Assembly (NCBI GenBank): GCA_964187785.1
Contig: OZ076409.1
Span: 2,418,001 to 2,482,000, forward strand
Source of the DNA: Amphiscolops sp. MND2022
Taxonomy: Eukaryota
Direction: 5' to 3'
DNA: 64,000 nucleotides
The notes under the pieces were generated by a model. The model was not told the origin of the DNA and did not search any database. It saw only the letters and a program-made list of their open reading frames with translations. This document shows, one piece after another, positions 739 to 58,790 of the stretch. The position numbers were made by a program, and so were the translations under genes. Numbering within the stretch: the stretch's first letter is position 1; each line of letters opens with the position of its first letter.

Positions 739-1147
739 GCAATTAATTATATCTCAATTGCGTTTCCAATGAAACAGTTGAGTTTTAAATTTATTCTCAG
801 GATGATAGTTTAGGATTCAGATACAAACTTTGTTTTCCATATGCAGTCACGCTTTTTTTGATGAGAAAATCAACAGCTTCCTGTTTTGAGTCACCAATAA
901 ACACTTAATACGAACGTAATTATAGTCAAAATGTGTGAACAATGTTTTGTTCAAGCGGAAAACTACTCTAATAGTGTGGAGACAACAAAACAAAGGAAAA
1001 GACTTATTCGAAGGAATATTGAATGATATAGTCAAATATAATCCTTTATGTTGAGTTTGTTTTCTTTAAAAAGTGGGGGGGGGGGGATTGGGAAGGAAAA
1101 AGAGCCTGAATTTCAATATATTTAGTTAGTTGGTCAATGTATTTTAC

Positions 1148-1226
1148 TATCCTGTAATCTATGATGAGGTCGGCGTCTCGGCACACAGGGCAAGGATTGG
1201 AGGACACGAATTTGGTGGAGAAACAC
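1148..1226 (-). CDS. MRPS18B: Mitochondrial ribosomal protein S18B (mS40), coding exon 3; gene probably continues beyond the window start
   Basis: Acceptor TACAG|G in phase 2; translates CFSTKFVSSNPCPVCRDADLIIDYR, matching the MRPS18B motif C....V.GNPCPICRD..L.VDFR. 3' boundary is 1152 (GA donor) or 1148 (GT donor). Confidence 0.85.
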
Positions 1227-1850
1227 CTGTAGTCAGGGATCATTGGGAATCTTCATCTCTGGATCAATGGAAACACTGAATCATTCAAAAAACCAGAAAA
1301 TTTCACGTGAAATTTGGAAAATACAGTTGACACTGATCAAGGTTGTTATGTTTAAAACAAACTGTTTTAAACAAGCTTGAAAAAAAACTGTTAAAACACT
1401 TTTGAAAAACACATGTTTTTTATGTTGTTTATTTCAAGCGAAGGGCCCATTCTTTTCGGCATGTTATGTTTGCAGTTCAGGCGGGTTGGAGCGTCAATTT
1501 TCGACGATGGGAGTCACCTATGGGTGGCTACGCACGCAGTTAGGGGTCGAGAAAGCTGGCAAACAGTTTTCTGTACCGAGAACTAATCAAGACTGCGATT
1601 CTTCCAGAAATTTGAAATAAAAAATTTAATTGAAAATGTTTTTATATAGCATAAATCAGATGAAAAAAACAACCATAAAAAACCGAGCACTTTTTTCGAA
1701 AAAAAAACGTTTAATTGTATAAAATGAAAAAAAAACTGTATAAGGTAACATCCTGACACTGATTATTATTCCTTTTCGAACTAATCCTTCTTATCATGTT
1801 GGCGTGATAAGTGACATTACAGTGAACAGGCAAGCTTTTTGCTGCTTTTC

Positions 1851-2312
1851 GTGGAATCCGGGACACGAAAATTGAGAAAAGTCGTGGAATCCAGGACAAA
1901 ATTTACCTTTGATGTTGAGCGTGTAAACTGAAAAATACAAAATTTTTGTGTGATATTGGTGTGATTGTCTGAATCATTTTGAATTAATATACGAAAAGTA
2001 GTGCATAATATTATGTTTGTTCAGTCTTCCACTTGAATTTAACTAAAGAAGAGATGCCGCGTATCGCGTCAAGCATAAAGTCGTGGAATCCAGGAAATTT
2101 ATGATTTCTGCAATTTGATTGGTTCATTTCCAAAATTTCCATTTGGTTCGCAAAACTTACGTTTTTGTGGAATCCGGGACACCGCTGCATGCCGACAGTT
2201 CGTACAGCTAAGCATTTGTTACTGGAATCCACGACTAAATCCGTGGAATCCGGGACAAATGACGTAATTTGCCAATTTTGCACGGTTAAAGGTATGGTCG
2301 TGGAATCCGAGA
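1851..2312 (+). repeat. Cluster of about 7 GTGGAATCC(G/A)GGACA motifs, likely subterminal repeats of a DNA-transposon remnant
   Basis: Motif visible at ~1851, 1884, 2083, 2167, 2223, 2243, 2300. Confidence 0.5.
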
Positions 2313-2593
2313 TATTGAACGCACTATGTTGCGCTTTGAGCAAATAAGGCTTGCCTGTGCACTCTAATGATGACAATTGGATGCTTTTAAAAAGATTTTA
2401 ATTATGACAATAATTTGTTCAAAAAGTCAAAAATATTTTTCCAGCTTTTTCAACTAGCCAAAAACTGATTTCACTACCAAAAACTACATAAGGAGACTTT
2501 GAAAGTCTTCAAAACTACTCAATTTTTCTCTTGGATCTACTTTTCCATTATTTTTACGATTATGAGAGTCGATTTTCAACAATCCGCCGTGAC

Positions 2594-2754
2594 TTTTTGC
2601 GGGTTTTCAGGTCAGGAATTTGGCCTTTGTTGTTTCTGCGGTAGTCCTCCCAAACTAGTTTGTCGCCGTAGGTCAGCTTGAAAGTGCTGGAGTTGAGGTA
2701 ATCTGTTCCGAAGCTTTTCTCATATTTGGGGTTCGCCTTGTGGTTTTGGGCTGA
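2594..2754 (-). CDS. MRPS18B: MRPS18B coding exon 2
   Basis: TTTCAG| acceptor, AA|GTCACG donor; translates SAQNHKANPKYEKSFGTDYLNSSTFKLTYGDKLVWEDYRRNNKGQIPDLKTRK(K), matching YLES..Y..RYG..PVW.DYRRNHKG..P...TRK; joins exon 3 in phase 2. Confidence 0.9.
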
Positions 2755-4189
2755 CTGAAATCGCTTGAATTTGAAATCCTTAGCGAGGGTTCAAAACGTC
2801 ATTTAACGAATTCGTGATAATTTTTTATCATACTTTGAATTTGACTTTGGTACGAAGGTACTTGATAATTTGGCTTTGATTACTTCATTCTAAGTAATGA
2901 CTCGCTAAAAACTCTGCAATTAAAAAATTGGAAATAGTTTCAAAAGATACTTCTATCATCTCCACGTAGATTTTTGGGGATGAAAACCTATTTCAAGAGC
3001 GAATGCAATCATGAACAATTCTAATTTTTGAATCCAACAAAAGAATTGCGAATAATGTTTCAAACTTTGGACCAAAAGCGGTGGTATTTGAAACAAGATG
3101 AGAATGTCTGAAAACGGCGTCACTCAGGGCTCAGAAAGCGCGAAGTCTCAAATATGTTCAGAGTGGATTTCTGAGAATTTCTCATAAATTTCAGAGTAAT
3201 GATAATATCCGAAGGGGCAATTAATGGCCTCAGAAAACACTTTTCTCTACCAAAGCACCTTTAGTGGTGTAAAAAACATCGAAAAAGTTACAGTGCCGAA
3301 AAAACGCAAAGGGTATCCTTCGATCCCCACAGGATTTGCAAACATCAAAAAAATTCCGGCTTGGGAGCATTTGAACCTGCGACAACCAGCTTGGGAAGCG
3401 CGCATCCTAAATACTAACTTCTGGACTTAAATTGAATCTCAATTCTAAACTGAACTTGTAAACTTCTGAAATATTTTTGATGTTTCTCTTTTATACCATT
3501 CAATTGAATAAATAAACGTTGCTTTCCTTGAAGACAATAGTGATAGTAAGTGATATTGCAATGACTTTCTGCACTCTATTCTTCGAAGGTACTCAAAGCT
3601 CTCAGCGTACGATTAACGACTTAATGGTTAATACTCGCTTGGTTTCTAGGAAAGACAGTGACTCCGAATTCACACGGGTGAAAGAAAGGTAACCTTCGGT
3701 ATTTTAATAACCTAAACAGAATATTTGGACCATGTGTCTTATCCCCACCAGGTACACACTTGTTTCGAATCCTCCTTTTAAAAGAACATTTTATTCTTGA
3801 ATGAAAAATATTCACTAATAAGAGAATATATGAATGTAAATACTTAGAGGGTCGTCTCTACAGCTGTTTCGACACTTCCACTAAAAATAAGACCCTAATT
3901 ATCGCCAAAATCTTATTGCCACAAATAGCAAAAATTCACGATTGGAACCAGCTAAAAATCACCTATTTCAACGCAAATTTTCTCGTAACAAAATTCAATG
4001 ACTTTTGACTGATATTCAACGTAAAAGATAGGATTATGTCATCAATTATTTCACAGGACCAAAATTTCAACACAAACGGTGTCGACATGGTAGTATTTGA
4101 ACCTTGTTTCTTATCCCCCCGGGCCGCTTGGGGGAAATAAGAAACATGGTCCGGATAATCATTTTTGGACATATTTTTGGAACCCTCGC

Positions 4190-4537
4190 CTTAGCGCCAC
4201 TGCTTGAAAAACTTGAAAACTTCTTCACGGAATCACTTTCAGCTGGATTCGAATTTGACCCACTTTTTTCCAACTCAACTGCTTGTGTAGAGAAATACCT
4301 GCCGGTAAGACATTTCAATTTCATTCGCTGACGAGACAGAGAACACTTTATTTGCTGGCGACTAAGGAAATAACTGACAGGGCCCAATTCGGAAGAGAAG
4401 TATGAAAAGATATGACTGCTTCGAGCACTGCATGAAAATGTAGACTGAAGATTCGGCGAAGCAAAAAGTTGTAAAAAAGTTTTCATGGGTTTGAAAACTG
4501 ACGACATTGCGAATAATCTGAAACACAAATACAGCAT
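4190..4537 (-). CDS. MRPS18B: MRPS18B putative first coding exon (mitochondrial targeting peptide); start ATG ambiguous (4537, 4507 or 4324)
   Basis: Long open frame rich in S/R/F with RYFSTQ cleavage-like site; best donor AAG|GCGAGG is in phase 0 with exon 2; sequence after it is a hairpin repeat. Confidence 0.55.
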
Positions 4538-8169: not shown

Positions 8170-8475
8170 TCAAAAACAACCAAGAGATGTCAAAAACCCT
8201 GCAAACTGCTGTTGATTCATTATTTCAGTCTCGTTACTAATTCTGTTGATAACTTCTATTTTCGGTTCATCAGAGTCCAGCAAATTCTTCCCAAAAACAG
8301 CCACGTAAGGGTATCCCGCCATTTGGATGTCCTTCAATCTTCTGCCAATGGTGGAATTTGTGCGGTCGTCGAAAATGACGTCATTCAGTGATGAGTTGAC
8401 GCCCATGAAAAACTGTAAGACTTCAGCTGCTTGTTGTTCCTCTTTGCTGCCGCTTTTTGGCAGAACCACACAAAC
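8170..8475 (-). CDS. PARS2: Mitochondrial prolyl-tRNA synthetase, last coding exon (anticodon-binding domain)
   Basis: TTTCTTAG| acceptor; VCVVLPKSGSKE...DVIFDDRTNSTIGRRLKDIQMAGYPYVAVFGK...IEV, TGA stop; phase 0 with upstream exon. Confidence 0.93.
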   Translation of the reverse strand, partial: VCVVLPKSGSKEEQQAAEVLQFFMGVNSSLNDVIFDDRTNSTIGRRLKDIQMAGYPYVAVFGKNLLDSDEPKIEVINRISNETEIMNQQQFAGFLTSLGCF

Positions 8476-14847: not shown

Positions 14848-15014
14848 TTTGTAGGGTGATAAATTAGGAGGCCAGACAAATTGAGTGACGTCATCGTTGG
14901 TTGTTGCAGCCGCAGCAGTTGCCTCCATCACTGCAGCCAGAATGCGAGTCAGACCCAGTCCGTAACACCCCATTTGCATGCGAGACACATTCCCATTCAC
15001 ACCTCCTTGCTCGC
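14848..15014 (-). CDS. PARS2: PARS2 coding exon (class II motif 3)
   Basis: CCGTAG| acceptor in phase 1, AAA|GTAACT donor; MQMGCYGLGLTRILAAVME...WPPNLSPYK. Confidence 0.93.
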
Positions 15015-16423: not shown

Positions 16424-16574
16424 CTTGTAGGGTGCATTTGAAGACAGAACTGTATTTGTCGCCCAAAATGAACGTGTGACCCAATTCGATTGTTTGGTGA
16501 CTGGAGGGAGTGCCAGAACCACTGGTTTTAGCAAGCGATGACTCAACTTCCGGGTGGAAAAAGGTGTCCGAATC
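16424..16574 (-). CDS. PARS2: PARS2 coding exon
   Basis: TTTTGTCTAG| acceptor, CAAG|GTATGC donor (phase 1); DSDTFFHPEVESSLAKTSGSGTPSSHQTIELGHTFILGDKYSSVFKCTLQ matches GIEVGHTFYLGTKYSS. Confidence 0.92.
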
Positions 16575-17174
16575 CTAGACAAAAACCCAATATAAAAGTT
16601 ACAGAAACACCATAGTTCGAAAGTTCACATCATTTAGTGGACTAATTCCTGCTGTTGAATGAAAATCCGCATCCAGTTCGTTTCCACCGAAACTTTCGTA
16701 GCAACACATGATATTTAAAGAATACCGAAAGCGAGTGCGTTATGTTTATTGACGACACGAGAATGACGTGACAGGAGAATGACAGGAGAAAAATGACGTA
16801 AAGAACGTCTATCTTAACCTGACGTTGACTTATATCATTTTTTGTTCACTCCCAGACATGATTTTGATGTCAAAAGTGCTCTATTGGACCTTCGGTGGTG
16901 ACTAAATCACCACGATGATTTACGCGCTTCATTCGCTTTTAAAAATGTTGTTTTACATACTGGGTCGAATCCAAGGCCGTTCGTGGTGCGAGCCTTCTGA
17001 TTCGTTCACAGAACAACTGTGTGCGTTATTAGTAAAACGGAAAACCACCCCAGGTCGTTTAAGGTGCGGGCCTACTATTCCGTGAGGAATAGTGAAACGA
17101 GAAAACCGGTTTTTGATGTCATGATCGAAGTTACGTATCTGTAAACGTTTTTGTTTATCCATTAAATTATGAGT

Positions 17175-17468
17175 TTCTTAGGTTTAGGTCAAGTTTCTTT
17201 TGCTTGTGTTTTTCCGGCTTAGGTTACCAGGAATAAATTTCTTAGGATTACATTTCTTAGGTTTATATCTCTTAGGCTTAGGTTTCTTAGGATCATATTT
17301 CTTACGATTAGCTTTCTTAGGCTTAGGTTTCTTATGATTAGGTTACTTAGGCTTAGGTTTCTTAGGCTTACGTTTCTAAGATTTAGGTGTCTTAGGCTTA
17401 GGTGTCTTCGGCTTAGGTGGGTTAGGCTTAGGTTTTCTAAATTGGTTCTTGGGTTTAGGTTTCATAGG
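17175..17468 (+). repeat. Degenerate TTAGG(C/T)-rich simple repeat, present in each array unit
   Basis: Many TTAGGC / TTAGGT / TTTCTTAGG motifs in tandem. Confidence 0.85.
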
Positions 17469-18029
17469 CCAACTAACATTTTAAATTATGTTTTCATTTT
17501 TACAGGATCAGCAGCTCTTCGTCTTCGAGCCCAGCTGCAGCAGGGGAAAGAAATGAACATTTTCAAGATAATCTTCAAGAATGTGAACAGTTGATCATTT
17601 CTATTTCAAGAGTGTTCAAGAAAAATTCAAGATTCAGCTTTCAATCTTTTTTTTTACAAGAGTGTGCCGAAAGAAGGATTTCCAAGAGTGTGCCAGAAAG
17701 GAAGAAATCAAGCTTCAGCAGCCACATTTTTTTTTAAAAAAAAGCGTTACGGATCCAAATTTTCTCAATCACTAAATTTATTCTAAAACCAATATTTCAT
17801 TTTTTGGTTATTATCAAATAACATTCTACTTTCCTTACTTTTAAAGAAAAAAATAATAATGTTAACGTTGTTATTCTCATTCCACGTCAGTTGTAATATA
17901 ACAAAACCTCAAGCTCAGATATTGATTCAGCCCGCTAATACTGAAGCAATATTTTTCATTTGACGATTTTGGTTTTATGGAATTTTGACCATGATTAAAG
18001 AGTCTCCGTTTTCAGTTATTCTCTCCTTT

Positions 18030-18631
18030 ATGGTCAAGGTATTGGTTATTGGTGATAGTCACCATGAAAGAATCAGGATAAGTAATTTGAACTTTGCAGC
18101 AGACGTTGACGCTCGTGGCGGAAAAAAAGCCCATCATCTCTCGGAAAACACTTTTAACACCATTTTAAAAAATACGATGCAATCTTTGTTCTCCTTGGTG
18201 GCAATGGCGTTCACTCTCATGATTACTATAACCCTAACCCAAAAACGTCAACGGAAACGGCTGAACAATTAATCAGTAGTCAATTTGTTCTAGAAACACT
18301 GCATTTGGTTCTGTTCAAATTCACTTATGAAGAAATGTCGAAAATTCTAGCCACAACATTTATCTGAAATATTTGACTTTTCTATTTTTAAAAAAATCAT
18401 AAATGGTTCTTCTCTTAAATTTACTACTGTATAAGAACTTCAACGCTTCTGCAATGAGGACTGCATGAAGATTGTTACATCTTTGGTGTTCTGCCGCGAC
18501 TGGACTGCCCGGAGATACCCCAATTAAATGAGCTGCTATTTAAAAGCATTCATTCAAATTTTGTTGGATCTGCAAAAATTGTGGAAATTAGCCATGTTGA
18601 CAAGCGAGATCGTGTGCATTTGAGAAAATGA
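18030..18631 (+). pseudogene. SGNH/GDSL hydrolase pseudogene, array unit 1
   Basis: Block I VLVIGDSH, block II RGG, block III IFVLLGGN (after a frameshift in an A-run), probable intron, then IFGVLPR..LNELL..DKRDRVHL (block V DxxH). Confidence 0.75.
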
Positions 18632-20475
18632 GTATTATGAACTGACAACGCTCATTAACAAACTTTACAAAGATGCCTATACTGATGACTCAGATGAATA
18701 AAACGAAACATTTGTAAAATTCAATCTTTTCTTCCCGTAAAGTTATGGTTCAGAAAATTTTTTTTACAAATCACATTTTTATTTGATCCTGTTATGTAGT
18801 TCACATTGGTAAGACGTGTAAACCTAACCCTAGTAGTTTCTTCTCTCGAAATCCCCAAAAACTTCAAACATTTCTCAGTTTTTTTGTATCGATAACGTTC
18901 CATAAAAACTGCAGGTGTCTACACTAATTTGATGCTTTTAAGCAATTAACAATTTCATTTATACTCATCTGAAACAATTTTGTTGAATTTGGCGTCTCAT
19001 CCATTCGAACTTCAGTAAAGTGGCAGAAATTTAGTTACTTAGCAATGAAATATGTTTTACATCATTCTCAGTTTCGAAAAGAATGAAATAAAATATGGTG
19101 TCGGGTGAAAAAAGGTGTCCGAATCCTAGACAAAAACCCAATATAAAAGTTACAGAAACACCATAGTTCGAAAGTTCACATCATTTAGTGGACTAATTCC
19201 TGCTGTTGAATGAAAATCCGCATCCAGTTCGTTTCCACCGAAACTTTCGTAGCAACACATGATATTTAAAGAATACCGAAAGCGAGTGCGTTATGTTTAT
19301 TGACGACACGAGAATGACGTGACAGGAGAATGACAGGAGAAAAATGACGTAAAGAACGTCTATCTTAACCTGACGTTGACTTATATCATTTTTTGTTCAC
19401 TCCCAGACATGATTTTGATGTCAAAAGTGCTCTATTGGACCTTCGGTGGTGACTAAATCACCACGATGATTTACGCGCTTCATTCGCTTTTAAAAATGTT
19501 GTTTTACATACTGGGTCGAATCCAAGGCCGTTCGTGGTGCGAGCCTTCTGATTCGTTCACAGAACAACTGTGTGCGTTATTAGTAAAACGGAAAACCACC
19601 CCAGGTCGTTTAAGGTGCGGGCCTACTATTCCGTGAGGAATAGTGAAACGAGAAAACCGGTTTTTGATGTCATGATCGAAGTTACGTATCCGTAAACGTT
19701 TTTGTTTATCCATTAAATTATGAGTTTCTTGAGTTTAGGTCAAGTTTCTTTTGCTTGTGTTTTTCCGGCTTAGGTTACCAGGAATAAATTTCTTAGGATT
19801 ACATTTCTTAGGTTTATATCTCTTAGGCTTAGGTTTCTTAGGATCATATTTCTTACGATTAGCTTTCTTAGGCTTAGGTTTTCTAAATTGGTTCTTGGGT
19901 TTAGGTTTCATAGGCCAACTAACATTTTAAATTATGTTTTCATTTTTACAGGATCAGCAGCTCTTCGTCTTCGAGCCCAGCTGCAGCAGGGGAAAGAAAT
20001 GAACATTTTCAAGATAATCTTCAAGAATGTGAACAGTTGATCATTTCTATTTCAAGAGTGTTCAAGAAAAATTCAAGATTCAGCTTTCAATCTTTTTTTT
20101 TACAAGAGTGTGCCGAAAGAAGGATTTCCAAGAGTGTGCCAGAAAGGAAGAAATCAAGCTTCAGCAGCCACATTTTTTTAAAAAAAAAAGCGTTACGGAT
20201 CCAAATTTTCTCAATCACTAAATTTATTCTAAAACCAATATTTCATTTTTTGGTTATTATCAAATAACATTCTACTTTCCTTACTTTTAAAGAAAAAAAT
20301 AATAATGTTAACGTTGTTATTCTCATTCCACGTCAGTTGTAATATAACAAAACCTCAAGCTCAGATATTGATTCAGCCCGCTAATACTGAAGCAATATTT
20401 TTCATTTGACGATTTTGGTTTTATGGAATTTTGACCATGATTAAAGAGTCTCCGTTTTCAGTTATTCTCTCCTTT

Positions 20476-37030: not shown

Positions 37031-37042
37031 AAGTTCACTTAC

Positions 37043-37249
37043 AGGACACTTGTACAGGGTATCCTCGCCAACTTCAGCCAGCAGGTGAAACTCGTGTGAC
37101 AAAAGTCCCCCCATGGCCCCAGAGGGTGCTGCTACCTCCACCAGCAGCCGGGAGAGGCCAATCTCTCGGAACAAGAGTCTATAAGCCGTTCTCACTTCGT
37201 CGTAGAAGCGAGAACAGTCGTCAAGGTCACTGTGGAAACTGTACATGTC
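37043..37249 (-). CDS. PARS2: PARS2 coding exon
   Basis: CCTGAAG| acceptor, CCT|GTAAGT donor; DMYSFH...AYRLLF...GAMGGLLSHEFHLLAEVGEDTLYKCP. Confidence 0.95.
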
Positions 37250-37671
37250 CTTCAGGCGAACCAAGATTGGAATTGAAATTATGTAATCACTTAAACAGTT
37301 ACGGAAAAAACGAAGATCAGATGTTAAATTGAATGCATTTCGGAAAATATTCCATATGCACTGTTTCATAAGTTTATCACAACAATTAGGCTATCACGCG
37401 ACAACGTCTAAGAAATCAAATATTCGTCGTCTAATGTGGGTGAAGTATCGAGAGGTTGAAACAGCCAACAATCAAAACCGACAGCAGTGAAACGATCATT
37501 GTTCTCTTATTTTTGAACCTCCAAAAAGCTCAAATTTTCGACATTTGAATGTTATTACGGTGGCATGAAAGGGCACTTGACGATTAAGGAGCACCGGAAA
37601 ATACGCCTTGAAAACCTAATGCTGAAGTAAAATCTATTCAGCCACAACTTTGGCTACTATTTATCTTGTAA

Positions 37672-38422
37672 AACCAGAGCCGCTTGTGCGGTAAAGGTGT
37701 CGGAAACGGATTGAAACATTGAACAAGACGGGAACGTCTAAAGTCGGCGCTATATCTAAGGCTCAAAAAGCGCAAAAGACTTTAAAAAAAAAACGAATTT
37801 TTTGATTTTTTTTCTATCAGAAAATGTCGCATAGTGCCGAAAAATGTAAAAGGAGGGACCCTTTGGGCTTTATCAACATATATTCTGTTGCAAAATATCA
37901 AAAAACTCGAAAGGGGGACTCTTTTGAGACATTAAAAAACTTTCGAAAAAAGTCGCACAATGCCGAAAAAAAAATCGAAAGGGGGACCCTTTAGTCTCGT
38001 TCGGTTTTGTAGGTTACGTTAAAAAAGTAAAAAATGAAAGGGGGGACCCTTTTGCACTAATTTCCGCTGACCGGACTTGGCCTTATGGTTGTAGCTTTAG
38101 TAGTTTCGATTCTAAGAAAAGTGGCCCAATCAGAGTGAGATTGTAGTCTGACGAAAAAAAACTAGCCACTGTAAGACTCGGACACTTTTCACTAGAAAAG
38201 CGCCGACTAAAAACAAATTACGTACTTTATGTCATTTGGCCATTTTGGACTAATTTTGGCTATGTTTCTCAGATCCCAGTCATACAATTTTGATGTCATT
38301 GCGCACACAGGAGCACCAAAGTTCACAAAAATCGCATGGACAGTTCTTGCGAAATTCGAAATTTTCTCAAAAAAAAGGTTCGAGTGCATAAATAGTCGAA
38401 ATATTTTTTCCGACTCCTAAAA
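37672..38422 (-). mobile_element. Family C Helentron-type element with a family A copy (37722-38212) nested inside
   Basis: Outer ends AACCAGAGCCGC.TGTGCGGTAAAGG.GTCGG ... CCGACTCCTAAAA; inner element has complete family A termini. Confidence 0.7.
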
Positions 38423-39081
38423 GCGAGCGAGATTAATGTCTAAATGCAAAACGGGAATAACGTCTAAAGCCAAGTCATGCTCATTCCCTATCTTAATACA
38501 GTCAACTCCGGTTATTTCGGATCTTCGTCCAATTTGTACGTTTCTGAGACCCCCACCTCGTAAAGACAATCAAAGTAATGCCATCCGGTTACTTCGTATT
38601 TCCCATTATTCGTACTATTATTTCATTCGGTCGGCGGATTCCACTGTACATCGAATTTTAGACGTTATTCCGGAAATACTTTCAGACGACGTTATTCGCG
38701 CGTATATCTAAAACTATTCATTCAATCATTTGTTAATCCCGCCATTGATGCCATCATTGAAGAGGGAAGACTGTCTTAAAACAAATAATGCTCTGACTTT
38801 TTAAAAGTAGTTGAGGCATCTGCTTGGGAAGGTACCCTTTCGTGAAAAGAAGTCATTATAAATCAGTAAGCATAAAATTCGGAAATTTTTTCGGAGTACG
38901 TTCTTCTCTTTTGGAGGTACCTTTTCTAGACGGGATCATAGGCAGATGTCTCCCACGTACACGACTAACTTTCATTATTATTCCCATAATATTTTTCAAT
39001 GACTCATTTGACTGTACCGCCTTTTATTGTATTTTTATCCTAATTCACTTTTTTAATTCAATCATTCCAATCGGGGCGTGC

Positions 39082-39351
39082 CTTCATGGTGAACTCTCGC
39101 GATCTGAGCAAGCCATTTTTGGGTCTGGGCTCGTCTCTGAATTTGGGGCCTATCTGGTAGAGGGCAACGGGTAGTTGAGCAGAGGTCAAATTGCATTGGG
39201 CAACTAGGGAAGTGATGAGTTCCTCGAAAGTGGGCGAGAGACAGAATTCGCTTTTGCTTCTATCTTGTACAACCAGCAGCTCCGAAGCCATCAACTCATC
39301 TCGGCCGCTCTGCTTCCACAGACTCCGCGGACACAGAACTGGAAGAGACAT
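39082..39351 (-). CDS. PARS2: PARS2 coding exon (motif 2), ends at a GC donor
   Basis: GATAG| acceptor; MSLPVLCPRSLWKQSGR...FCLSPTFEELIT...QLPVALYQIGPKFRDEPRPKNGLLRSREFTMK|; donor AAG|GCACGC. Confidence 0.95.
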
Positions 39352-47415: not shown

Positions 47416-47610
47416 CTTCTGGACTGCTGGCAACCTCTTCATGTGCTTGTCCACAATGCGACACAGCTTTTCCAGAGATCTGGTCAGTTCCGGAGAGTGG
47501 GCGAACAGCCCGGCAGCCCCCGCGTGCTGGATCAGTCCGTTCATGGCCATGTACTTGTGACTGAAGCAAGATATCTGGGCCAGCGAGTCTTTGTACTGCA
47601 GTCGAGAGGC
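47416..47610 (-). CDS. PARS2: PARS2 coding exon (motif 1)
   Basis: GAACAG| acceptor (in-frame stop just upstream), AAG|GTACGT donor; ASRLQYKDSLAQISCFSHKYMAMNGLIQHAGAAGLFAHSPELTRSLEKLCRIVDKHMKRLPAVQK; not listed in this frame in the ORF track. Confidence 0.92.
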
Positions 47611-47722
47611 CTGTTCAGTTCAGCCACCAAGTCAGGGATGGGAGCATTTACATGTTTTGCTACCATTTCAACCCAAGCTTCACTTTATTTGGGATAGAGG
47701 AGAGTGAAGCTCTAGGCCACGC

Positions 47723-48145
47723 TTTTTTAGTCGGAGCTTCATGAAGTGAAACGCGACTATGATAGAGACGTTTTTCAATCCACACAAACTGCCCAAAATA
47801 GTTAGTTCTACCAAATTGTATGGTGTCAAATTGAACCACTTGGGCTGGGGAACTGACCAAAAAGGTTGTTTTTTTCAGCGTAACATACAATACCGGACGA
47901 GACTAAAGGGTCCCCTTCCAGTTTGTTTCCGGCATTTTGAGACTTTTTCGAAAAAATTCTCCAAAGGGCTCCCTTCAATTTTTTGGTATTTTGAAAGAGA
48001 ATAGATGTTGAAAAGGCCCAAAAGACCCCCTTTCAGGTTTTTCGACATTGTGAGACTTTTTTCGAAGCTTTCTCTGACACTTTGATGCCTTTTTGCTATT
48101 TTTGAGCCTTGGATATGGCGCGACTTATGCTGTTCCCGGCTTGTT
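47723..48145 (+). mobile_element. Helentron-type family A copy
   Basis: TTTTTAGTCGGAGCTTCATGAAG start; ..GTTCCCGGCTTGTT end; related to 50007-51810 and 58100-58572. Confidence 0.65.
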
Positions 48146-48266
48146 CGCCATGTTCCAATTTTATACTCATAAGATAGATGATTGCATTAAAAAACAAAAA
48201 TGTTTTTCAAAATCAATTTCTGACAGTTCTAGGGAGTTCTGCACAATTCTTGCACGTTTCCGTGGG

Positions 48267-48703
48267 CAGGGTTGGCCATTCTATGTTTTAAATTAATTTT
48301 AAACAAAAACGTTTTTAACGTTTTAAAACATGTTTAAAATACCCTCGGACAAAGAGAGAAAAACAAGCTTGAAAGAATGATCTTATCCAATATCATTCAA
48401 ATATCGCATCACAAAAGTAAGTTTTTCAACTTTCTGAACTCCACGCCTGTTGCGAAGATCAGAGTGGATGGACTAGACATGCCATTTCGAGTGCCAATTT
48501 CAGTAGTCCTTCGAGATAGATTTTCATTTTCACTTGACATTTCATTAATTTGCTCATTTTAGACACCTACTTGTCTGTCTACAACGATTACATCTAAATA
48601 AAAAAAGTTTTGATGGGATTGTATTTTATTCAAAATAAAACAGTGTTTTAAACTGTGTTAAAACGTGTTTTAAAACACCCATGTTTTATTTTGGCCAACC
48701 CTG
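48267..48703. mobile_element. hAT-type MITE, present only in duplication copy 1
   Basis: TIR CAGGGTTGGCCA / TGGCCAACCCTG, 8-bp TSD TCCGTGGG; empty site at 56512-56519. Confidence 0.92.
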
Positions 48704-49205
48704 TCCGTGGGTATAAATATCAAGAGTACGGCGACAAAATAGGCTACGTAGCATGTTTGATTTCAGGAGGAGGACCTAATTTAACAGGGGGTTTTGTTTC
48801 TCTAACCTCTAACTCGCCTTCTCGACTTTCAACGCGGATTTCGAGGTAGCAGTCAAAATTTGACGAAACGTAAAACTTTAAAGTTGTTCTTGAGTTTAGT
48901 AATTTTGATTAAAAGCAACCAAAAATAACTTTAAGCTCTAATACTTTTTCGACTTTTCCAGAGTTCACTACAGCTGCATAAATTGCTAATAATTTGCAAA
49001 AAATGTCAACAATTAATTCCACATACGTTTTCGGGATAAAATAGTTCGATGAAAAACTCCGGAAGGGAATCATTCTTTCAAACGCATTTCAGAAAAATGT
49101 TGTTTTGGAATTTGCAATCTGTGCGTTTAGTTGACTAAAATCGCTAGTGCTTCAAGACAAACACGAACGCGACAAAACGAATAGGGCGGCCCAAACGAAA
49201 CTAAA

Positions 49206-49277
49206 GACAGTTGGCCTAGTGGGTGCAGCATTGGCTTCCGAAGCATGAGGACAAGGTTCGAATCTGGCTAGTGTCCA
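49206..49277 (+). other. tRNA-like (pseudo-tRNA) segment inside a Helentron-type repeat; copy at 57308-57379
   Basis: A-box TGGCCTAGTGG and B-box GGTTCGAATC, poor stems; immediately followed by the GCGCCGACT..TTGTT element terminus. Confidence 0.55.
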
Positions 49278-50312
49278 ATTCTTTGCGCCGACTGAGCTGT
49301 TCTCGGGTTGTTAAGAAAGCATCTAAATCTTGATGAAAAGTCTTGTAGTAACAAAGCTTAGTACATGTGAACGAAGCTCTCGGTGAACTATTAATTAGGA
49401 AACACTCGTACGCTTCATGCCAAAAAAGTGTCTTCCTTAGCTACAAACCGAGTTATACCAGCGGCTGAGATTTAGAAAAGTAATAAATTACAGGTGTGTG
49501 GAAAGTTTAGTCAAAATTGTCTAGTCAAAAAGCGCTTTCATTGGGCGTATTTTCTATCAAAATCTGCAATACCATATGAGATCAAATGATTCCCCTTTGG
49601 TCGTTTTTTGACATTGTGCCGTTTTTTCCGAATTTTCTTTTATGTCGCCGAAGGGTATCCCGTTTTTTTCTGATGCCCAGGCAGAAAGGTTTTGCGAACT
49701 CAAAGGCCCCCCTAAGAAGGTTTTCGGCACTGTGAGCCTTAGGTGAGACCGCCTACTTCAATTACTGCAGTAATAAGGTGGAATGTTATAAAAAAGACCG
49801 TTCTCGTCTTGTTTGTAGTATCCCAAGTTACGCAAAAAAAATATTATCAAGTGTAAATGAATGACACTCAGAAGACAAGCGTCGCATACTGAATAGTTCT
49901 AAAACATTTCCTTCACCTGAAGTTTCACTCACACTAGTTAGAGAAAATCTCATGTCGGCGCACCGCTTAAAACTCAAAAAGCTCAAATTCTCATTAAAAT
50001 GCCTTGTTTTTTAGTCGGCGCTTCATGAAGTGAAACGCGACTATTATAGTGACTCTTTTTTCCAATCCAAACGAACTGGCCAAAATAGTTCTCAAAAGTT
50101 CTACAAAATATTATGGTGTCAAATTGAACCATTTGGCCTAGCGAACTGAACCAAAAAAGTTTTTCCTGTTTTCCCGCGTAACATACCATACCGTGCGAGA
50201 CCAAAGGGTCCCCCCTTTCAATTTTTTTCGGCACTGCGAGACTTTTCGGAAATTTTTTCCCCAAAGGGTCAACCCTTCAATTTTTTGATGTTTTGCGACA
50301 GAATGGATGTTG

Positions 50313-51500
50313 AACCAGAGCCGCATATGCGGTAAAGGAGTCGGCTTAAGTCTTTTTCCTTCTGACTCGCTTTCGTTCGAATCGTATGAACAGTTTGTGA
50401 GAAAATCGAAAAATGACTGTTTTTTTGGCCATTTTTGGGCTAAATTTGGCTATGTTTCTCACATCCCAGCCATACGAATTTAATGAAATTGCACATAAAG
50501 GACCATAATATGGTGTAGAATGACTATAGAAAATTTCGTTCGAATCGTATGGACAGTTTTTGAGAAAATCGAAAAAAATTGAAAAATGACTGTTTTTTGG
50601 CCATTTTTGGGCTAATTTTGGCTATGTTTCTCACATCCCAGCCATAGGATTTTGATGCCATTGCACATATAGGACTCTAATATGGTGTAGAATAACTGTA
50701 GAAAATTTCGTTCGAATTGTATGGACAGTTTTTGAGAAAATCGTAAAAAGTCGAAAGATGGCTGTTTTTTGGCCATTTTTGGGCTAATTTTGGCTATGTT
50801 TCTCACATCCCAGCCATACGATTTTGATGCCATTGCACATATAGGACTCTAATATGGTGTTAAATAACTGTAGAAAATTTCGTTCGAATCGTATGGACAG
50901 TTTTTGAGAAAAGCGAAAAATGGCTGTTTTTTGGCCATTTTTGGGCTAATTTTGGCTATGTTTCTCACATCCCAGCCATACGATTTTGATGCCATTGCAC
51001 ATATAGGACTCTAATATGGTGTAGAATAACTGTAGAAAATTTCGTTCGAATTGTATGGACAGTTTTTGAGAAAATCGTAAAAAGTCGAAAAATGGCTGTT
51101 TTTTGGCCATTTTTGGGCTAATTTTGGCTATGTTTCTCACATCCCAGCCATACGATTTTGATGCCATTGCACATATAGGACTCTAATATGGTGTTAAATA
51201 ACTGTAGAAAATTTCGTTCGAATCGTATGGACAGTTTTTGAGAAAAGCGAAAAAAGTCGAAAAATGGCTGTTTTTTGGCCATTTTTGGGCTAATTTTGGC
51301 TATGTTTCTCACATCCCAGCCATACGATTTTGATGCCTTTGCACACGCAGGGGCCCCTTTGGGTGTAGAAGGACTGTGCAAAATTTCGTGAAAATCGTAT
51401 GGACAGTTTTTGAGAAATTTGAAATTTTCATGAAAAGGTCGGGAGAAAAAAAAACAGCACGATTGCATAAGTAGTCGAAAATTTTTTCCGACTCCTAAAA
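50313..51500 (-). mobile_element. Family C Helentron-type element containing a ~172-bp satellite (about 6 units), nested in a family A copy
   Basis: Hairpin CCGCATATGCGG and subTIR AGGAGTCGG / CCGACTCCT; units start ~50427, 50599, 50771, 50933, 51105, 51277; absent from duplication copy 2. Confidence 0.8.
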
Positions 51501-51873
51501 ATCCCAAAGGCCCCCCCCCTTTCAGTTTTTTTCGACAATGAGATTTTTTCCGAAAATAAAAATCCCGCTTCAATTGTTTGATGTTTTGCGACAGAATTGA
51601 TGTTGAAAAACGCCGAAGGGTCCCCCTTTCAGTTTTTTTCGGCATTGTGAGACTTTTTTTCGAAAAATTTTTAATTACTCCAAAGGGTCTCTCTTTAAGC
51701 GCGCCAATTCGGTCCAACTTTTGAGTTTTTGGGTACTGTAAGAAAATCGTGACACTTTAAAGTACTTTAAAGTAGATATGGCGCCGATTTATGCCGTTCC
51801 CCGCCTGTTTCAATGGACTAAGACATTCAATTATATACGACATTATATGCCAACTTCCTATTAGGTCCCGTCC

Positions 51874-52026
51874 CTGGTTAGCATTCCGAAACAACTGTTG
51901 CGACATCAATGTGACGTCACCATTCTGCACCAGACGAGCCAGCAACGACTTCATATTGCCAAATCTGAAACTGGCACTGCTGGAAGAACCAACACAAGCA
52001 GCGTTGATGGGACTTTTCGTCCTCAT
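51874..52026 (-). CDS. PARS2: Putative PARS2 first coding exon, copy 1 (targeting peptide)
   Basis: MRTKSPINAACVGSSSSASFRFGNMKSLLARLVQNGDVTLMSQQLFRNANQ: basic and Ser-rich; LMSQQLF sits at about the spacing of LLSRVF in PARS2; needs a CAG|GGACGG donor; total protein 482 aa. Confidence 0.5.
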
Positions 52027-52189
52027 TGAGATTTTCAAGTGTGTCGTGAAAAATGTTCCATTCGACCGGTTTCTTAGGTCGTTTGTGATCTCGCAATACA
52101 CAACCCAATTGGGAAGGTGGCCAGTGATGATCATTTCCATTTCAAAAAAGATTTTTTCCTCAAAAATTATTTGCAAAACAATGATGTAA

Positions 52190-52478
52190 CACAGAGGCGA
52201 AGCGGTGCTTCGCAACACATGACGAAGACAACGATTATTTTAATATGCGTATATATATTATTTTAATCGCATGCGTATATATTCAACAGTTCAACTTTAT
52301 TCAATAACGTCCTTATGGCACAGTGGTTAACACTTATGCCGCGCAATCGGGAGGCTGCAGGTTCGAATCTCTCTGGGGTTTTGGCTTTTCTCTAAAAGGC
52401 GCTTATTATGAAGTTGGCTATTGTGGAAAAAAAACTTTCTTAGCTGGACTGCAATGCACATTGACTTCGTCATGTGCA
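52190..52478 (-). mobile_element. ~290-bp Helentron-type element with tRNA-like core (52309-52380)
   Basis: Hairpin GCGAAGC-GGT-GCTTCGC, subTIR CACATGACGAAG / CTTCGTCATGTG; empty site near 58950. Confidence 0.8.
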
Positions 52479-53337
52479 ATAATTTGAACAAAAACGTTAA
52501 GTACTTTCCGGGCAACGCTTTTTTTGATCGAAAATACACGTAGGAGCTCGTAGTTCTATCCAAACCTGACAAGTTAGCGAAATTCTTGGACTGAATTAAT
52601 TGCCTGCTTTTGTTCACGTGCTCAAGAAACGATTTCTATTTATAGAAATTGTAGAATCATTGATTTGACTTCTGAATGAAATTATTCATACAAATTAATT
52701 CAAATTATTTTGTAAAAATAGGCCCCTGCGGGACACAATATTATGTATGCTTTCAGAAGCATATCTGGGAAGAACATACACTTCTATTAAAGCATTAAAT
52801 AGTTCACAATTATTAGCTGTACCAGTTTCCACCGCTTTTAATTCTGCTCGGACTAAAGAAAATATACCTACTAAGCGTAGACGAAGTTTCGCATTCGCAT
52901 TTTAATGCAGGCGAAGCTCTCGGCGAACGAATAATAAACACGCATTGGCTTCTTTTCAATGAATTCGACGTACGAAAGCATAATTAACACTGCTCGTTTC
53001 GTCGCACGAGAAAGGAATTGTTGTCGGCAGCTTCAGAAATTTAAATCTCACGCTTATACTCACTGCCGAACAAAATATCTGAATTTTTCAGTAGGTACTC
53101 GGACCGCTAACAAAACTGACTGAAAAAGGTAGTTTTCTCAGATTTCTATATTATTCCTGCTATCGCAGAAGTAATAAAAATGATCATCACTGTAGCTGGC
53201 AATCAAAAGTCCTTCCGTTCATTAGGATTCATTGTGCGTTATTGAGGGGCGTTTTGAGAAATGTATTACGGTGACTATTTATATCGTAGAATATTCAGAA
53301 CGTCGAACACCTATATGTATGTATTTAACTGGAATTT

Positions 53338-53372
53338 GATTGGCTCATTTAATGCAATTTTGGTCACGTGAC
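53338..53372. promoter_or_regulatory. Possible promoter elements: CCAAT box and palindromic E-box GTCACGTGAC (copy at 59822-59856)
   Basis: GATTGG and GTCACGTGAC about 1.3 kb upstream of the putative PARS2 start; motif presence only. Confidence 0.3.
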
Positions 53373-54120
53373 TGTGTGTAAACTGCTTTCGACGCTTTGA
53401 ATATTCTACGTTTTGAATTGTCCCCATGTATTTCAAATTCAAAAACTGACAATCTCTGCTCAATTTTCACAAGTGCGAGTCGTTTGAAATTACGAGTCAA
53501 AGGTCACATATTTTCACGTGGGAACTACTTTCCGAGTTCAATTACTCTCGAATCTCCCTTCCTTTCAATTCAGACTTCCCTTGATGCTGTGAAATTGTAT
53601 TTCCATGCATTCCTCCACCTATAAGCTGATTCTTCAAGCATTTGAAGACATTACAGTTCTTCAAGTGACAAACTTTCCAGCTTCGAAAAAATTAATACTA
53701 TTTCCCATGAAAATCGAGTACGGCTTTTAGTTTCGAAAGTCTTTGAGGTCAATGAAATTCGATTCGTACGTCTTCAAGTTTATGCAAAAGTATCGCAGTA
53801 CCACTGTGCTCTTTTGGTATAAATTTTTCTATTCAAAAAACGAGACGTTTCTGACAGACTGAGTGCTTTAATCTAGATCAAATGAAAATGTTGCGATAAT
53901 TGAAGTTGAGATTAAGCGATCAGTATCAAGATGACGCCGAATATCAACTCAAGAAGGCCAGGCCGTTGAGAATCTTGACTACAAGGATCATGTTTCCATG
54001 TATCATCAGCTAGGTCTATCAGATATCTTTTTCCAAATTTGAATTTGATGAAGCAATGTGGCTTCTCCAGAAGCTGTCAATGTGGCGAAGTAAACAGCAA
54101 TTAGCACATTGTCTCAAATC

Positions 54121-54458
54121 GGTTCTAGGACAATACGCCCAAGGAAATTACGCCCAAACGGAAATTACGCCCAAGGAAATTAAACTATTCAAAGCGAATA
54201 GCAGCGATTTTTTTCAGGTTATTATTTGAAGAGGCTTAAATATTTGTTGTATGGCTCGTTCGCTTCGCTCCCTTCGCCAAGTAGCAACATTGAGGCATGG
54301 CCATATGGCACGTCGCTCCGCTTCGCTCCTGCATTTAGGGCACTAGGGGTATGTGTGGCATAGCTGATTACATTATCGTAATTTACTTGTGCGTAATTTA
54401 CGTTTGGGCGTAATGTCCGCTTTGGGCGTAATGTCCTTGGGCGTAATGTCCGGACACC
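54121..54458. mobile_element. Foldback/Mutator-like MITE with tandem TTACGCCCAA subrepeats in its TIRs (copy at 60605-60932)
   Basis: GG...GGACAATACGCCCAAGGAAATTACGCCCAA / TTGGGCGTAATGTCCGGACACC; flanks CTCAAATC / CTCAATTC. Confidence 0.7.
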
Positions 54459-54509
54459 CTCAATTCGACAGTATGATATGAGCCCCAGTATGAAATTGCT
54501 AACCAACTA

Positions 54510-55227: not shown

Positions 55228-56280
55228 TTAACCAGGAATAGAGGTGGAATTTTCTGGATCCATCGTAAAATAGGTTGCTTAAACTTTGAACCGCAATATC
55301 TCCTTAACTATTCAAGTCCGAAAAACGATTTATACAGCGTTCGAAAGAGGAGCATCAGGGCTTTCAAATCAATTTTTAAACTGCTGGGCTGGGGGCCCGC
55401 TTCGCTGCACTGGCTCCGGACTTTGCGCCAAAACTTTGCACGCCTTGTGTCTCTGATTGCATTTCAGCATGTTTCAACACATGCTACGGTCACTTTGACC
55501 CAATCTTGATACCAGCGGGATAAAAGGGCCACAAACGAAAACTGGAAAAACGGAAAATCTGCGCTTACTTTTTGGTCCCATTTTCTTGATTTCGGAGACA
55601 TCACGTCAATATTCTGTGAAATGGCGTGCAATGCTATGTAAAATCGTCTGAAAATCCTATTGAAGAGTTTTCCTCACCATACGGTCAGCTGGTGCGTTTA
55701 GAAGTTTGCAGAATTTAACTGGTACGAAATCATTTAAAAAACAATTCGTTGCAAAAAATGAATGAAATCTATAATAATGACGAAAACTCTTTAACCCGGA
55801 ATGGAGGTGGAATTTTCTGGATGCATCCAAAAATCTGGTGCTCAAACTTTGAACCGCAATATCTCGAAAACTATTCAAGTCCCACAAACGATTTATACAG
55901 CGTTCAAAAGAGCATCAGGGCCGCACTGGTTCCGGACTTTGCGCCAAAAATTTGCACGCGTCGTGTCTCTGCTTGCTTTTCAGCATGTTTCAAAACATTC
56001 TGATGCCGCTTTGACCCAATGTTGACACCAGTGGGTTAAAAGGGCCAGAAACCAAAAATGGGAAACTGGAAAATCTGCAGTTATTTTTTTTTGAATTTTT
56101 TGTCTCATTTTCTGGATTTCAGAGACATCACGTCAATATTCCGTGAAAAGGCGCCGAATGCTATGCAATATTGTCTGAAAATCTTATCCAAGAGTTTGCT
56201 TTACCATACGGTGGGCAGGTGCCTTTAGAAGTTCGCAGATCTTAAGTGCAAATACGTACCGCGATGCTAAATAGGGTTAA
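55228..56280. repeat. Two diverged ~560-bp tandem copies, TTAA-bounded (piggyBac-like remnant)
   Basis: TTAACC.GGAAT.GAGGTGGAATTTTCTGGAT at 55228 and 55791; ends AGGGTTAA. Confidence 0.55.
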
Positions 56281-56720
56281 TAAGTGGATTTGACTTCTTT
56301 GTTAAATCCTCGTTTTCAGACGTGTGCCGATAAAGGGCAAATAAGGGGCAAATTTCAAAATAAAGGGCGGCAAATAAAGGGCAAAATTTTTTTTAAAAAG
56401 GACAAATCGCGGTGGCCCTACTCATAAGATGGATGATGGCATAAAAACAAAAATGTTTTTCAAAATCAATTTCTGACAGTTCTATGGAGTTTTGCACAAT
56501 TCTTGCACGTTTCCGTGGGTATAAATATCAAGAGTACAGTGACAAAATAGGCTACGTAGCATGTTTGATTTCAGGAAAAGGCCTAAATTAACACGGAGTT
56601 TTGTTTCTCTAACCTCGAACTCGCCTTCTCGACTTTCAACTAAACGCGGATTTCGAGGTAGCAGTCAAAATTTGACGAAACGTAAAACTTTAAAGTTGTT
56701 CTTGAGTTTACTGATTTTGA

Positions 56721-57008
56721 CACAGAGGCGAAGCGGTGCTTCGCAACACATGACGAAGACATCGATTATTTTAATATGCGTATATATATTATTTTAATCG
56801 CATGCGTATATATTCAACAGTTCAACTTTGTTCAATAACGTCCCTATGGCACAGTGGTCAACACTTATGCCGTGCAATCGGGAGGCTGCAGGTTCGAATC
56901 TCTCTGGGGTTTTGGCTTTTTCTGAAAGGCGCTCATTATGAAGTTGACTATAGTGGAAAAAAACTTACTTGGCTGGACTGCAATGCACATTGACTTCGTC
57001 ATGTGCAA
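56721..57008 (-). mobile_element. Second insertion of the ~290-bp tRNA-core Helentron-type element
   Basis: Near-identical to 52190-52478 but at a different site; empty site near 48908. Confidence 0.8.
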
Positions 57009-58634
57009 TAAAAAGCAACCAAAAATAACTTTAAGCTCTAATACTTTTTCGACTTTTCCAGAGTTCACTACAACTGCATAAATTGCTAATAATTTGAAAA
57101 AAATGTCAACTATTAATTCCATATAAGTTTTCGGGATAAAATAGTTCGATAAAAAACTCCGGAAGGGAATCATTCACTTTGAAACGCATTTCAGAAAAAT
57201 GTTGTTTTCGAATTTGCAATCAGTACGTTTAGTTGACTAAAATCGCCAGTGCTTCAAGACAAACACGAACGCGACAAAACGGATAGGGCGGCCCAAACGA
57301 AACTAAAGACAGTTGGCCTAGTGGGTGCAGCATTGGCTTCCGAAGCATGAGGACAAGGTTCGAATCTGGCTAGTGTCCAATTTTTTGCGCCGACTGAGCT
57401 GTTCTCGGGTTGTTAAGAAAGCGTCTAAATCTTGTACTAAGCTTTGTTACTACAAGTGAGCGGTTAAGACTTTTGTTCATCATTTGAATATAAACGAAGC
57501 TCTCGGTGAACTATTAATTAGGAAACACTCGTACGCTTCATGCCAAAAAAAGTTGTCTTCCTAGCTACAAAGAGAGTTATACCAGCGGCTGAGATTTAGA
57601 AAAGTAAAAATTACAGGTGTGTGGAAAGTTTAGTCAAAATCGTCTAGTCAGAAAAGCGGTTTTATTGGGCGTATTTTTTATCAAAATCTGCAATACCAAT
57701 GAGATCAAATGATTCCCCTTTGGCCGTTTTTTGAGATTGTGCCGTTTTTTCCGAACTTTTTTTCATGTCGCCGAAGGGTATCCCGTTTTTTTCTGATGCC
57801 CAGGCAGAAAAGTTTTGCGAACTCAAAGGCCCCCTAAGAAGGTTTTCGGCACTGTGAGCCTTAGGCGAGGCGGCCTACTTCAATTACTGCAGTAATAAGG
57901 TGGAATATTATAAACAAGACCGTTCTCGCCTTGTTTGTAGTATCCCAACTTACGCAAAAAAATATTAACAAGCGTCGCCAGAATGGCATACTGAATATTT
58001 CTAAAACATTTCCTTCACCTGAAGTTTCACTCACACTAGTTAGAGAACATCTCAAGTCGGCGCACCGCTTAAAACTAAAAAAACTCAAATTCTCATTAAA
58101 ATGAAGTGAAACGCGACTATACTAGTGGCTTTTCTTTTTTCTTTCAATCCACACGAACTGACCAAAATAGTTCTTAAAAGTTCTACCAAATATTATGGTG
58201 TCAAATTGCACCATTTGGCCTAGCGAACTGAACCAAAAAAGTTTTTCCTGTTTTTCCGCGTAACATACCATACCGGGCGAGACCAAAGGGTCCCCCTTTC
58301 AATTTTTTTGGGCACTGCGAGACTTTTTTCCGGAAAAAAAATTTCCCCAAAGGGTCCCCCCTTCAATTTTTTGATGTTTTGCGACAAAATGGATGTTGAA
58401 AACCCCCAAAGGGTCCACCCTTTCAGTGTTTTTCGGCATTGTGAGACTGTTTTTCCAAAAACTTTTTTTTTCATAAAAGGGTCCCCAACTCACCAATACT
58501 TTGACATATTGAAGTCCTTTTGATATTTTTGAGCCTTAGACATGGCGCCGACTTATGCCGTTCCCCGCTTGTTTCAATGGACTAAGACATTCAATTATAT
58601 ACATTATATGCCAACTTCCTAGTTGGTCCCGTCC

Positions 58635-58790
58635 CTGGTTAGCATTTCGAAACAACTGTTGCGACATCAATGTGACGTCACCATTCTGCACCAGACGAGC
58701 CAGCAACGACTTCATATTGCCAAATCTGAAACTGGCACTGCTGGAAAAACCATCACAAGCAGCGTTGATGGGACTTTTCGTCCTCCTCAT
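58635..58790 (-). CDS. PARS2: Putative PARS2 first coding exon, copy 2
   Basis: Frame preserved (3-nt indel, synonymous CGG/CGA); same CAG|GGACGG end. Confidence 0.45.

Follow-up and report, generated by a model that had tools for sequence, protein, structure and literature searches.

The question raised by this locus is whether an animal genome can use bases other than T at the second position (+2) of its introns and, if it does, what kind of introns these are. The window, by which we mean the whole stretch of 64,000 nucleotides (nt) analysed here, comes from the acoel Amphiscolops sp. MND2022 (GenBank assembly GCA_964187785.1, 1.07 Gb in 1929 contigs; contig OZ076409.1, positions 2,418,001 to 2,482,000, that is, G000:C1:2418001-2482000; G+C 35-43%). 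It holds three genes, all on the minus strand, namely PARS2, encoding mitochondrial prolyl-tRNA synthetase, an MRPS18-like gene and RPL23. An initial annotation had proposed GC, GG and GA donors in the first two of them, and suggested that this genome may tolerate any base at +2. We observed that around one in eight of the resolved junctions seems to start with GC, GG or GA, and that most of the introns concerned, though hardly any GT introns, carry complementary sequences at their two ends. We therefore lean, by a small measure, towards a distinct minority class of G[C/G/A]-AG introns with hairpin ends and a transposon origin, which a spliceosome tolerant at +2 would remove.

All junctions in this study were placed by protein colinearity. 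Ten coding junctions were resolved in the window (six in PARS2, three in the MRPS18-like gene and one in RPL23), corresponding to the ten donors on which the proposal had been built, and the four donors flagged as unusual (39081, 4189, 1151, and 51873 with its duplicate at 58634) are all present on the minus strand, each with an exonic AG and a G at +5. The other six (47415, 37042, 16423, 14847, MRPS18-like intron 2 and RPL23) are GT. Non-GT donors in the window number three to five out of ten. The PARS2 donors read, in order, CAG|GGACGG (51873; 58634 in the second copy of exon 1), AAG|GTACGT (47415), AAG|GCACGC (39081), CCT|GTAAGT (37042), AAG|GTATGC (16423) and AAA|GTAACT (14847), and the G-N-A-C-G-N pattern noticed earlier in the first three is real.

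The donor of PARS2 intron 3 (37250..39081) can be read with certainty as GC. Exon 3 (39082..39351) ends in ...GLLRSREFTMK and exon 4 (37043..37249, DMYSF...TLYKCP) opens with DMYSFH..., both without gaps against the proteins P0001, P0002 and P0005. Past 39081 an in-frame TGA is reached after nine codons, the interval between the REF codons and this TGA is free of GT, and the sole GT upstream would remove FTMK, so that colinearity across REFTMK|DMYSF forces the GC donor and leaves no usable GT. For intron 1 (47611..51873) a GG donor is the best fit, since CAG|GGACGG at 51873 joined to the acceptor aacag|GCC (47611/47610) reproduces exactly, and without a gap, the spacing of P0002 between LMS.QLF and SHKYM. 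P0002, from the acoel Convolutriloba macropyga, is the best relative of this PARS2, at 64% identity. A rival GT that the initial annotation had not listed nevertheless remains, namely GGAA|GTTGGC at 51851 with the acceptor tacaaag|AC at 47589, whose product is one residue shorter. Both copies of exon 1 read GG at the donor, and their divergence (1/82 in the exon, 2/22 just past it) is too small to choose between GG and GT. A search of the same genome for PARS2 paralogs, sought for donor comparison, returned none, and PARS2 is single copy.

The second gene was recognized as mitochondrial ribosomal protein S18 through an all-against-all HMMER comparison, the matches of which carry PF01084 in Pfam; Pfam searches of six open reading frames (ORFs) of the window gave nothing useful, and no match for this gene. 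Its exons lie at 4324?-4190, 2778-2594 and 1226-1152, with a fourth beyond the window at C1:2417284-2417445, found by a genome search with the homolog P0065, and the genome holds a single further match, which is weak (29% identical). The third intron, 1714 nt in total with positions 1..1151 inside the window, ends at G000:C1:2417438, 563 bp outside the window start, and exon 4 (NPELLKHF...) follows, 564 bp outside the window. This exon opens as tgtttgtacag|A AAC CCG GAG and requires two bases from exon 3 (1152..1226, CFSTKFVSSNPCPVCRDADLIIDY + AG), which only ...GAT TAC AG| supplies, yielding DYR|NPELLKHF against DYRNPELLKQF in P0065. In alignment A1 the exon-3 piece stops at DY and exon 4 starts at N, with one column left for the split codon, and this N is present in 7/7 homologs. 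The GT at 1147 (phase 0) could be joined only to gag|CTT, with the loss of NPE. The GA donor CAG|GATAGT at 1151, first offered as a possibility, is therefore well supported by colinearity.

The GC at 4189 (AAG|GCGAGG), which had been called probable, is likewise the best fit for intron 1 (2779..4189), with less to decide it. Exon 1 (4190..4324, start codon uncertain) ends in ...SSSGAK, and exon 2 (2594..2778, DFKFK...KTRK, donor AAAAA|GTCACG) must begin at ctcgctaag|GAT (2778), since there is a stop immediately before it. The GT in AGG|GTTCCA at 4183 is, however, also in phase (phase 0), adding just two residues in an unconserved stretch, and MRPS18 homology around 4189 is too weak to choose between the two.

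Junctions outside the window were taken from the actin, tubulin and HSP70 families, whose exons were found with Pfam models and compared with paralogs in this genome that lack introns, as references. All possible donor and acceptor positions between adjacent exons were tried by script, and the solutions that best restored the reference protein were retained if they had an AG acceptor. Among 25 junctions of actin and actin-related proteins there were 21 GT, one GC, two GG and one GA; 19 tubulin junctions comprised 16 GT, two GC, no GG and one GA; and all 12 HSP70 junctions were GT, with no GC, GG or GA. In total, 49 of 56 junctions (88%) are GT, three GC, two GG and two GA, giving 12.5% non-GT. 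Such donors had been expected to be rare if the initial annotation were mistaken; within these three families, which do not stand for the whole genome, they are not, and 7/56 is far above the less than 1% of introns with non-GT/AG termini given for most eukaryotes in the relevant part of PMC13326754. Four junction attempts were left out of the tally: an HSP70 copy on C12 and an HSC70 copy on C3, both described below, C3:974 J1 (no solution) and C3:5568 J1 (ambiguous, with a GT-AG solution 3 units under the top score). Two actin genes contributed no first intron, their exon 1 not having been located, and the unpaired donor at 187/188 of the C2 actin, whose acceptor was not fetched, was excluded as well.

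Together with the window, 11 non-GT junctions are available: PARS2 intron 3 (GC) and intron 1 (GG), MRPS18-like intron 3 (GA) and intron 1 (GC), four from the C8 and C2 actins (GG, GC, GG, GA) and three from tubulins (GC, GA, GC). Their donor hexamers are GCACGC (twice), GCGAGG, GCAAGG, GCCAGT, GGACGG, GGATTT, GGATCT, GATAGT, GAAAAA and GAAAGA; all 11 have G at +1, an exonic AG and an AG acceptor, and 8/11 have G at +5. Minor, U12-type introns start with /[AG]TATCCTT, and none of the 11 donors fits this motif. Replacing any of the seven outside the window, which lie on C2, C8 and C11, by its best GT-AG alternative lowers the score by 15-62 BLOSUM62 units, changes the length of the actin or tubulin by -10 to +25 residues and would disturb protein cores such as LNPK|ANRE, HSLG|GGTGSG and YGKK|AKLEF. 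The exons beside non-GT introns have open frames and share 58-99% identity with the references, and the C8 actin-like gene is open across its four exons to ...HRKCF-stop; a further copy of it on C253 is 100% identical and therefore not independent. Most animals have a purine at donor +3. The GT donors of this genome are loose for an animal in this respect, 18/55 having T there (GTTAGA, GTTTGT, GTTGGT and others).

What sets the non-GT introns apart is the structure of their ends. We aligned the 5' end of each intron (-8 to +32) against its reverse-complemented 3' end (-50 to +8), with 4290 mismatched end pairs as the null, for a final set of 66 introns (11 non-GT and 55 GT). Complementarity at an empirical p<=0.05 was found in 9/11 non-GT introns against 3/55 GT introns, the latter being about the level of chance (Fisher 3e-7, Mann-Whitney 1e-6), and the difference persists outside the window alone (5/7 against 2/49, p 1e-4). 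The idea of inverted ends arose from MRPS18-like intron 1 and was formed on six introns, before five further non-GT introns were found; these five gave p values of 0.002, 0.010, 0.029, 0.087 and 0.24. In five of the first six introns the 5' arm begins within the interval -3 to +1 (CAG|GCAAGG..., AG|GGATT..., CAG|GGACGGGA), and 4-22 nt separate the end of the 3' arm from the AG.

One example is MRPS18-like intron 1, in which a terminal inverted repeat, GCGAGGGTTCCAAA (4189-4176) with TTTTGAACCCTCGC (2796-2783), matches at 13/14 positions and extends precisely from +1 to a point 4 nt short of the acceptor; TAAG follows, TAAG also ends exon 1, and CGCTAAG stands at both junctions. PARS2 intron 3 has an imperfect terminal inverted repeat (39083-39064 / 37273-37254) with TGAAG at both junctions, in PARS2 intron 1 under the GG-AG reading the 5' arm CAGGGACGGGA (51876-51866) pairs with TCCCATCCCTG (47643-47633), and the 5' arm of the GA-AG intron of the MRPS18-like gene is AATACATTGACCA at 1143-1131. 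In 3/9 non-GT introns tested, all three in the window, the end of the exon is repeated directly at the end of the intron, over 7, 5 and 5 nt; such repeats never exceeded 4 nt in the 50 GT introns tested. Both non-GT introns of the C8 actin lie at positions unique among the compared actin copies, its GT intron being at a common position. MRPS18-like intron 1 (2779-4189) and the GC intron at L058:1869-2285 each contain a nested high-copy element of about 430-450 bp, beginning 20-40 nt past the donor (3806 and 7843 first-look candidates at 75-80% identity, the two elements being mutually unlike); as GT introns share such nested high-copy repeats with non-GT ones, the repeats are uninformative on origin.

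These features would be explained if short inverted-repeat insertions, resembling miniature inverted-repeat transposable elements (MITEs) or introners, had entered exons, with the end of the element providing the G-N start and the target duplication or its flank providing the AG. The major spliceosome would then accept any base at +2, given an exonic AG, G at +1 and usually G at +5, and remove the insertion exactly; splicing at these sites, the transposon origin and the tolerance of the spliceosome are all inferred. A raw case of an inverted-repeat element splitting an exon is present in an HSC70 copy of this genome, described below. The claim that any base is tolerated at +2 is upheld in part: C, G and A seem to be used besides T, but since GT still accounts for 88% and the non-GT introns form a separate class with inverted ends, a uniform loosening of +2 is not what is seen.

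Several observations weigh against the transposon-derived class. For two of the 11 non-GT introns the inverted ends fall short of significance; repeats resembling target-site duplications (TSDs) are clear in just three of the nine tested, the rest having 2-3 nt as GT introns do; and no significant terminal sequence is shared among the 11, which are thus not one family. The hallmark of introners, many near-identical copies, is absent for the GG intron of the C8 actin, which is unique in the genome, and the 20-nt arm of its GC intron has 15 further matches at <=2 mismatches compared with 5 for a reversed control. The GG intron of the C2 actin occupies the position of a GT intron in two paralogs, which fits a GT-to-GG change equally well. 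Non-GT introns are also clustered (2/3 in the C8 actin, 2/3 in the C2 actin, 2/6 in PARS2 and 2/3 in MRPS18), which could mean decaying copies, though no exon has a stop. Searches for a spliced protein of the same species returned at best 66% and 64% for PARS2 exon 3, nothing for MRPS18 exon 2 and at best about 73% for C8 actin exon 3, and no RNA run matched in a sequencing-run search with PARS2 exon 3. Moreover, the sample of three conserved families plus the window is small, family-biased and not genome-wide. The polypyrimidine content at non-GT acceptors seems lower than at GT ones, without significance (p 0.11).

The alternative that survives best, though we would put it at only about one chance in five, is that the inverted ends are a working RNA structure, in which a stem brings a poor G-N donor beside the 3' end and is kept by selection, an arrangement that resembles the nonconventional introns of euglenids, with their paired ends. 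That each intron has its own arm sequence with no common family, one being unique in the genome, would suit such a stem, as would arms that include the donor at a fairly constant geometry and the absence of any pairing excess in GT introns; Euglena introns with pairing between their ends are described in the relevant passages of PMC11282704. On the other hand, a donor buried in a stem should hamper U1 pairing, the direct repeats of 5-7 nt at three junctions fit insertion and not folding, and the AG acceptor with exonic AG|G in 11/11 is as in spliceosomal introns. A transposon origin and a functional stem are not mutually exclusive, and the stem, as an aid to weak donors, is a live alternative. 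A stronger version, which we regard as rather improbable, holds that this is a second, structure-guided mode of intron definition, with G-C/G/A introns recognised through the pairing of their ends and not through U1-GU pairing; if this were true, transposon hairpins would be splice-competent on arrival, and intron gain could be studied in an early-branching bilaterian.

It is also possible, with a probability that we judge a little lower still, that the non-GT junctions are unused, being disabling insertions, decaying copies or mis-inferred boundaries, that real transcripts rely on GT sites close by or on other exons, and that the genome is ordinary except for a few GC-AG introns. The lack of a matching RNA run, the GT rivals at two window donors (4183 and 51851) and the concentration of non-GT cases in few paralogs agree with this. 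Raw insertions into exons do occur here, as follows from the HSC70 paralog on C3 (G000:C3:36747297 / 36763225; L088, L089), whose exon is split at AKRTL|SSSAQ by an inverted-repeat element of about 16 kb, bounded by TTGTTACGAC...GTCGTGACAA, with TTG (3 bp) duplicated and no cut position with an AG; a raw transposon insertion and a fully non-canonical intron are the two readings of this split. Against unused junctions, PARS2 is single copy and the MRPS18-like gene nearly so, and the GC (39081) and GA (1151) introns must therefore be removed exactly; all 11 carry AG|G...AG, which random insertions would lack; and the flanking exons are open and conserved, with GT alternatives adding or deleting core residues at the cost already given. 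From their short, imperfect arms and from the repeats nested within the introns, the insertions are old.

The initial annotation had further implied an unusual U1 or U6 small nuclear RNA (snRNA). The Rfam model of U1 has 23 matches in the genome, and seven of the ten loci read start with ATACTTACCTG; the other three (L015, L016 and L017, on C13, C12 and C7) have the variant 5' ends ...TTTAAACCTGG, ATTCTTACCTG and ATACTTACTTG, none of which would pair with C, G or A at +2. The canonical U1 copies fall into two distinct body types. All six U6 loci read carry GATACAGAGAAG, with the ACAGAGA box. Canonical snRNAs are no argument against relaxed donors as such, because in the larvacean Fritillaria, by the account in the portions of PMC13326754 used here, fewer than 10% of introns are GT/AG and yet the U1 5' end and the U6 ACAGAGA are unchanged. 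A uniform relaxation of +2 through an alteration of the U1 5' end or of the U6 ACAGA box is very improbable and, at the level of sequence, largely refuted, for although all four bases occur at +2, GT donors are loose at +3 as well and U1 varies at three loci, the U1 5' ends are mostly and the U6 boxes wholly canonical and GT accounts for 49/56 junctions, the non-GT introns being a separate structural class.

Apart from the introns discussed, PARS2 comprises seven coding exons running from 51954 (or 58715) down to 8173. Exon 1 is present twice, as copy A (51874..51954, MKSLLARLVQNGDVTLMSQQLFRNANQ, with 11/22 N-terminal residues identical to P0002) and as copy B (58635..58715, differing at one position in its coding part), in a segmental duplication of several kb (window ~51775-54500 and 58550-61000) whose similarity stops about 110 nt beyond the donor. 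The remaining exons are exon 2 (47416..47610), exon 5 (16424..16574), exon 6 (14848..15014) and the last coding exon (8173..8475), and RPL23 is composed of exon 1 (63673..63894, donor AAG|GTTGGT) and exon 2 (61903..62097). Within PARS2 intron 3, positions 37368-37391 on the minus strand match, unchanged, the first 24 nt of the Symsagittifera roscoffensis spliced leader as quoted from PMC9911081; the copy continues as GAAACA|GTGCAT where the published sequence has TAAATAGA, its fold is ordinary (z -1.5), and it may be a variant of the spliced-leader RNA gene or a relic. Together with the Convolutriloba relative of PARS2, this match marks the DNA as that of an acoel. PARS2 intron 4 contains, at about 16600-26000, some four tandem copies of a unit of about 2.5 kb, seen as recurring identical ORFs; Tandem Repeats Finder reported no repeat at 15-27 kb, the unit exceeding its 500-bp limit. 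The same intron holds at 30501-30953 (plus strand) an ORF with a Helitron helicase-like N-terminal domain (PF14214, E 7e-10), and other long ORFs at 42-46 kb have no Pfam match. As for the HSP70 copy on C12 (G000:C12:46913223-46913760; L078), its donor CAG|GTATGT comes directly after ...SYVAF, and the 14 codons (TDSERLIGDAAKNQ) that precede the common intron in its paralogs are missing; the copy may have a missed mini-exon or be a damaged copy.

If transcripts confirm these junctions, acoels would take their place beside the larvacean tunicates among animals in which non-GT introns are spliced routinely, and such introns would be tied to inverted-repeat insertions, which bears on the origin of introns and the flexibility of the spliceosome. 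For acoel annotation, a penalty on non-canonical junctions would cause pipelines to break or miss about one intron in eight, with effects on genes such as PARS2, MRPS18 and some actin and tubulin genes. Introns of comparable kinds are already known. In Oikopleura dioica, Denoeud and colleagues reportedly described in 2010 U2-type introns that often begin with G plus any base and end in AG, amounting to about a tenth of its introns. The present introns are alike in combining G and a variable +2 with an AG acceptor in an animal (here 11/11 non-GT introns), and differ in belonging to another phylum (Acoela versus Tunicata) and in being marked by inverted-repeat ends. Ordinary GC-AG introns of the U2 type, which make up about 1% in human according to the part of PMC3167603 relied on, resemble the five GC donors found here, each with an exonic AG, but leave unexplained the GG and GA donors, the 12.5% frequency and the inverted ends. 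Euglenid nonconventional introns have paired ends and no fixed GT/AG; here the ends pair too, but the +1 G and the AG are kept in 11/11.

No report of such introns in acoels or Xenacoelomorpha was met in the literature searched, taking in the main-text parts of PMC9911081, PMC6451197, PMC10565955 and 10.1101/2024.12.01.626237 and others, with supplements outside its scope. In the stretches of text drawn on from Gozashti et al. 2022 (PMC9860276), introners are given for only two animal groups, and the words 'acoel', 'Symsagittifera' and 'Xenacoelomorpha' are absent. Introners, as portrayed in the relevant sections of PMC11282704, have terminal inverted repeats (TIRs) and TSDs, with the end of the element giving the donor 'gc or gt' and the TSD giving 'ag'. 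MRPS18-like intron 1 has exactly this layout of the introners of Micromonas and other aquatic eukaryotes (PMC11282704; PMC9860276), but those form families of many near-identical copies, unlike the introns found here. The MITE-derived non-canonical introns of Fritillaria borealis (Henriet et al. 2019, as summarised in passages of PMC11282704 and PMC13326754) are alike in their TIRs and in a U2-type spliceosome with an unchanged U1 5' end and U6 ACAGAGA, and their TSDs have a counterpart in the direct repeats at three of the nine introns tested here; GT/AG introns make up fewer than 10% there, AG-AC or AG-AT being usual, whereas here 88% are GT-AG, the AG acceptor is constant and only +2 varies.

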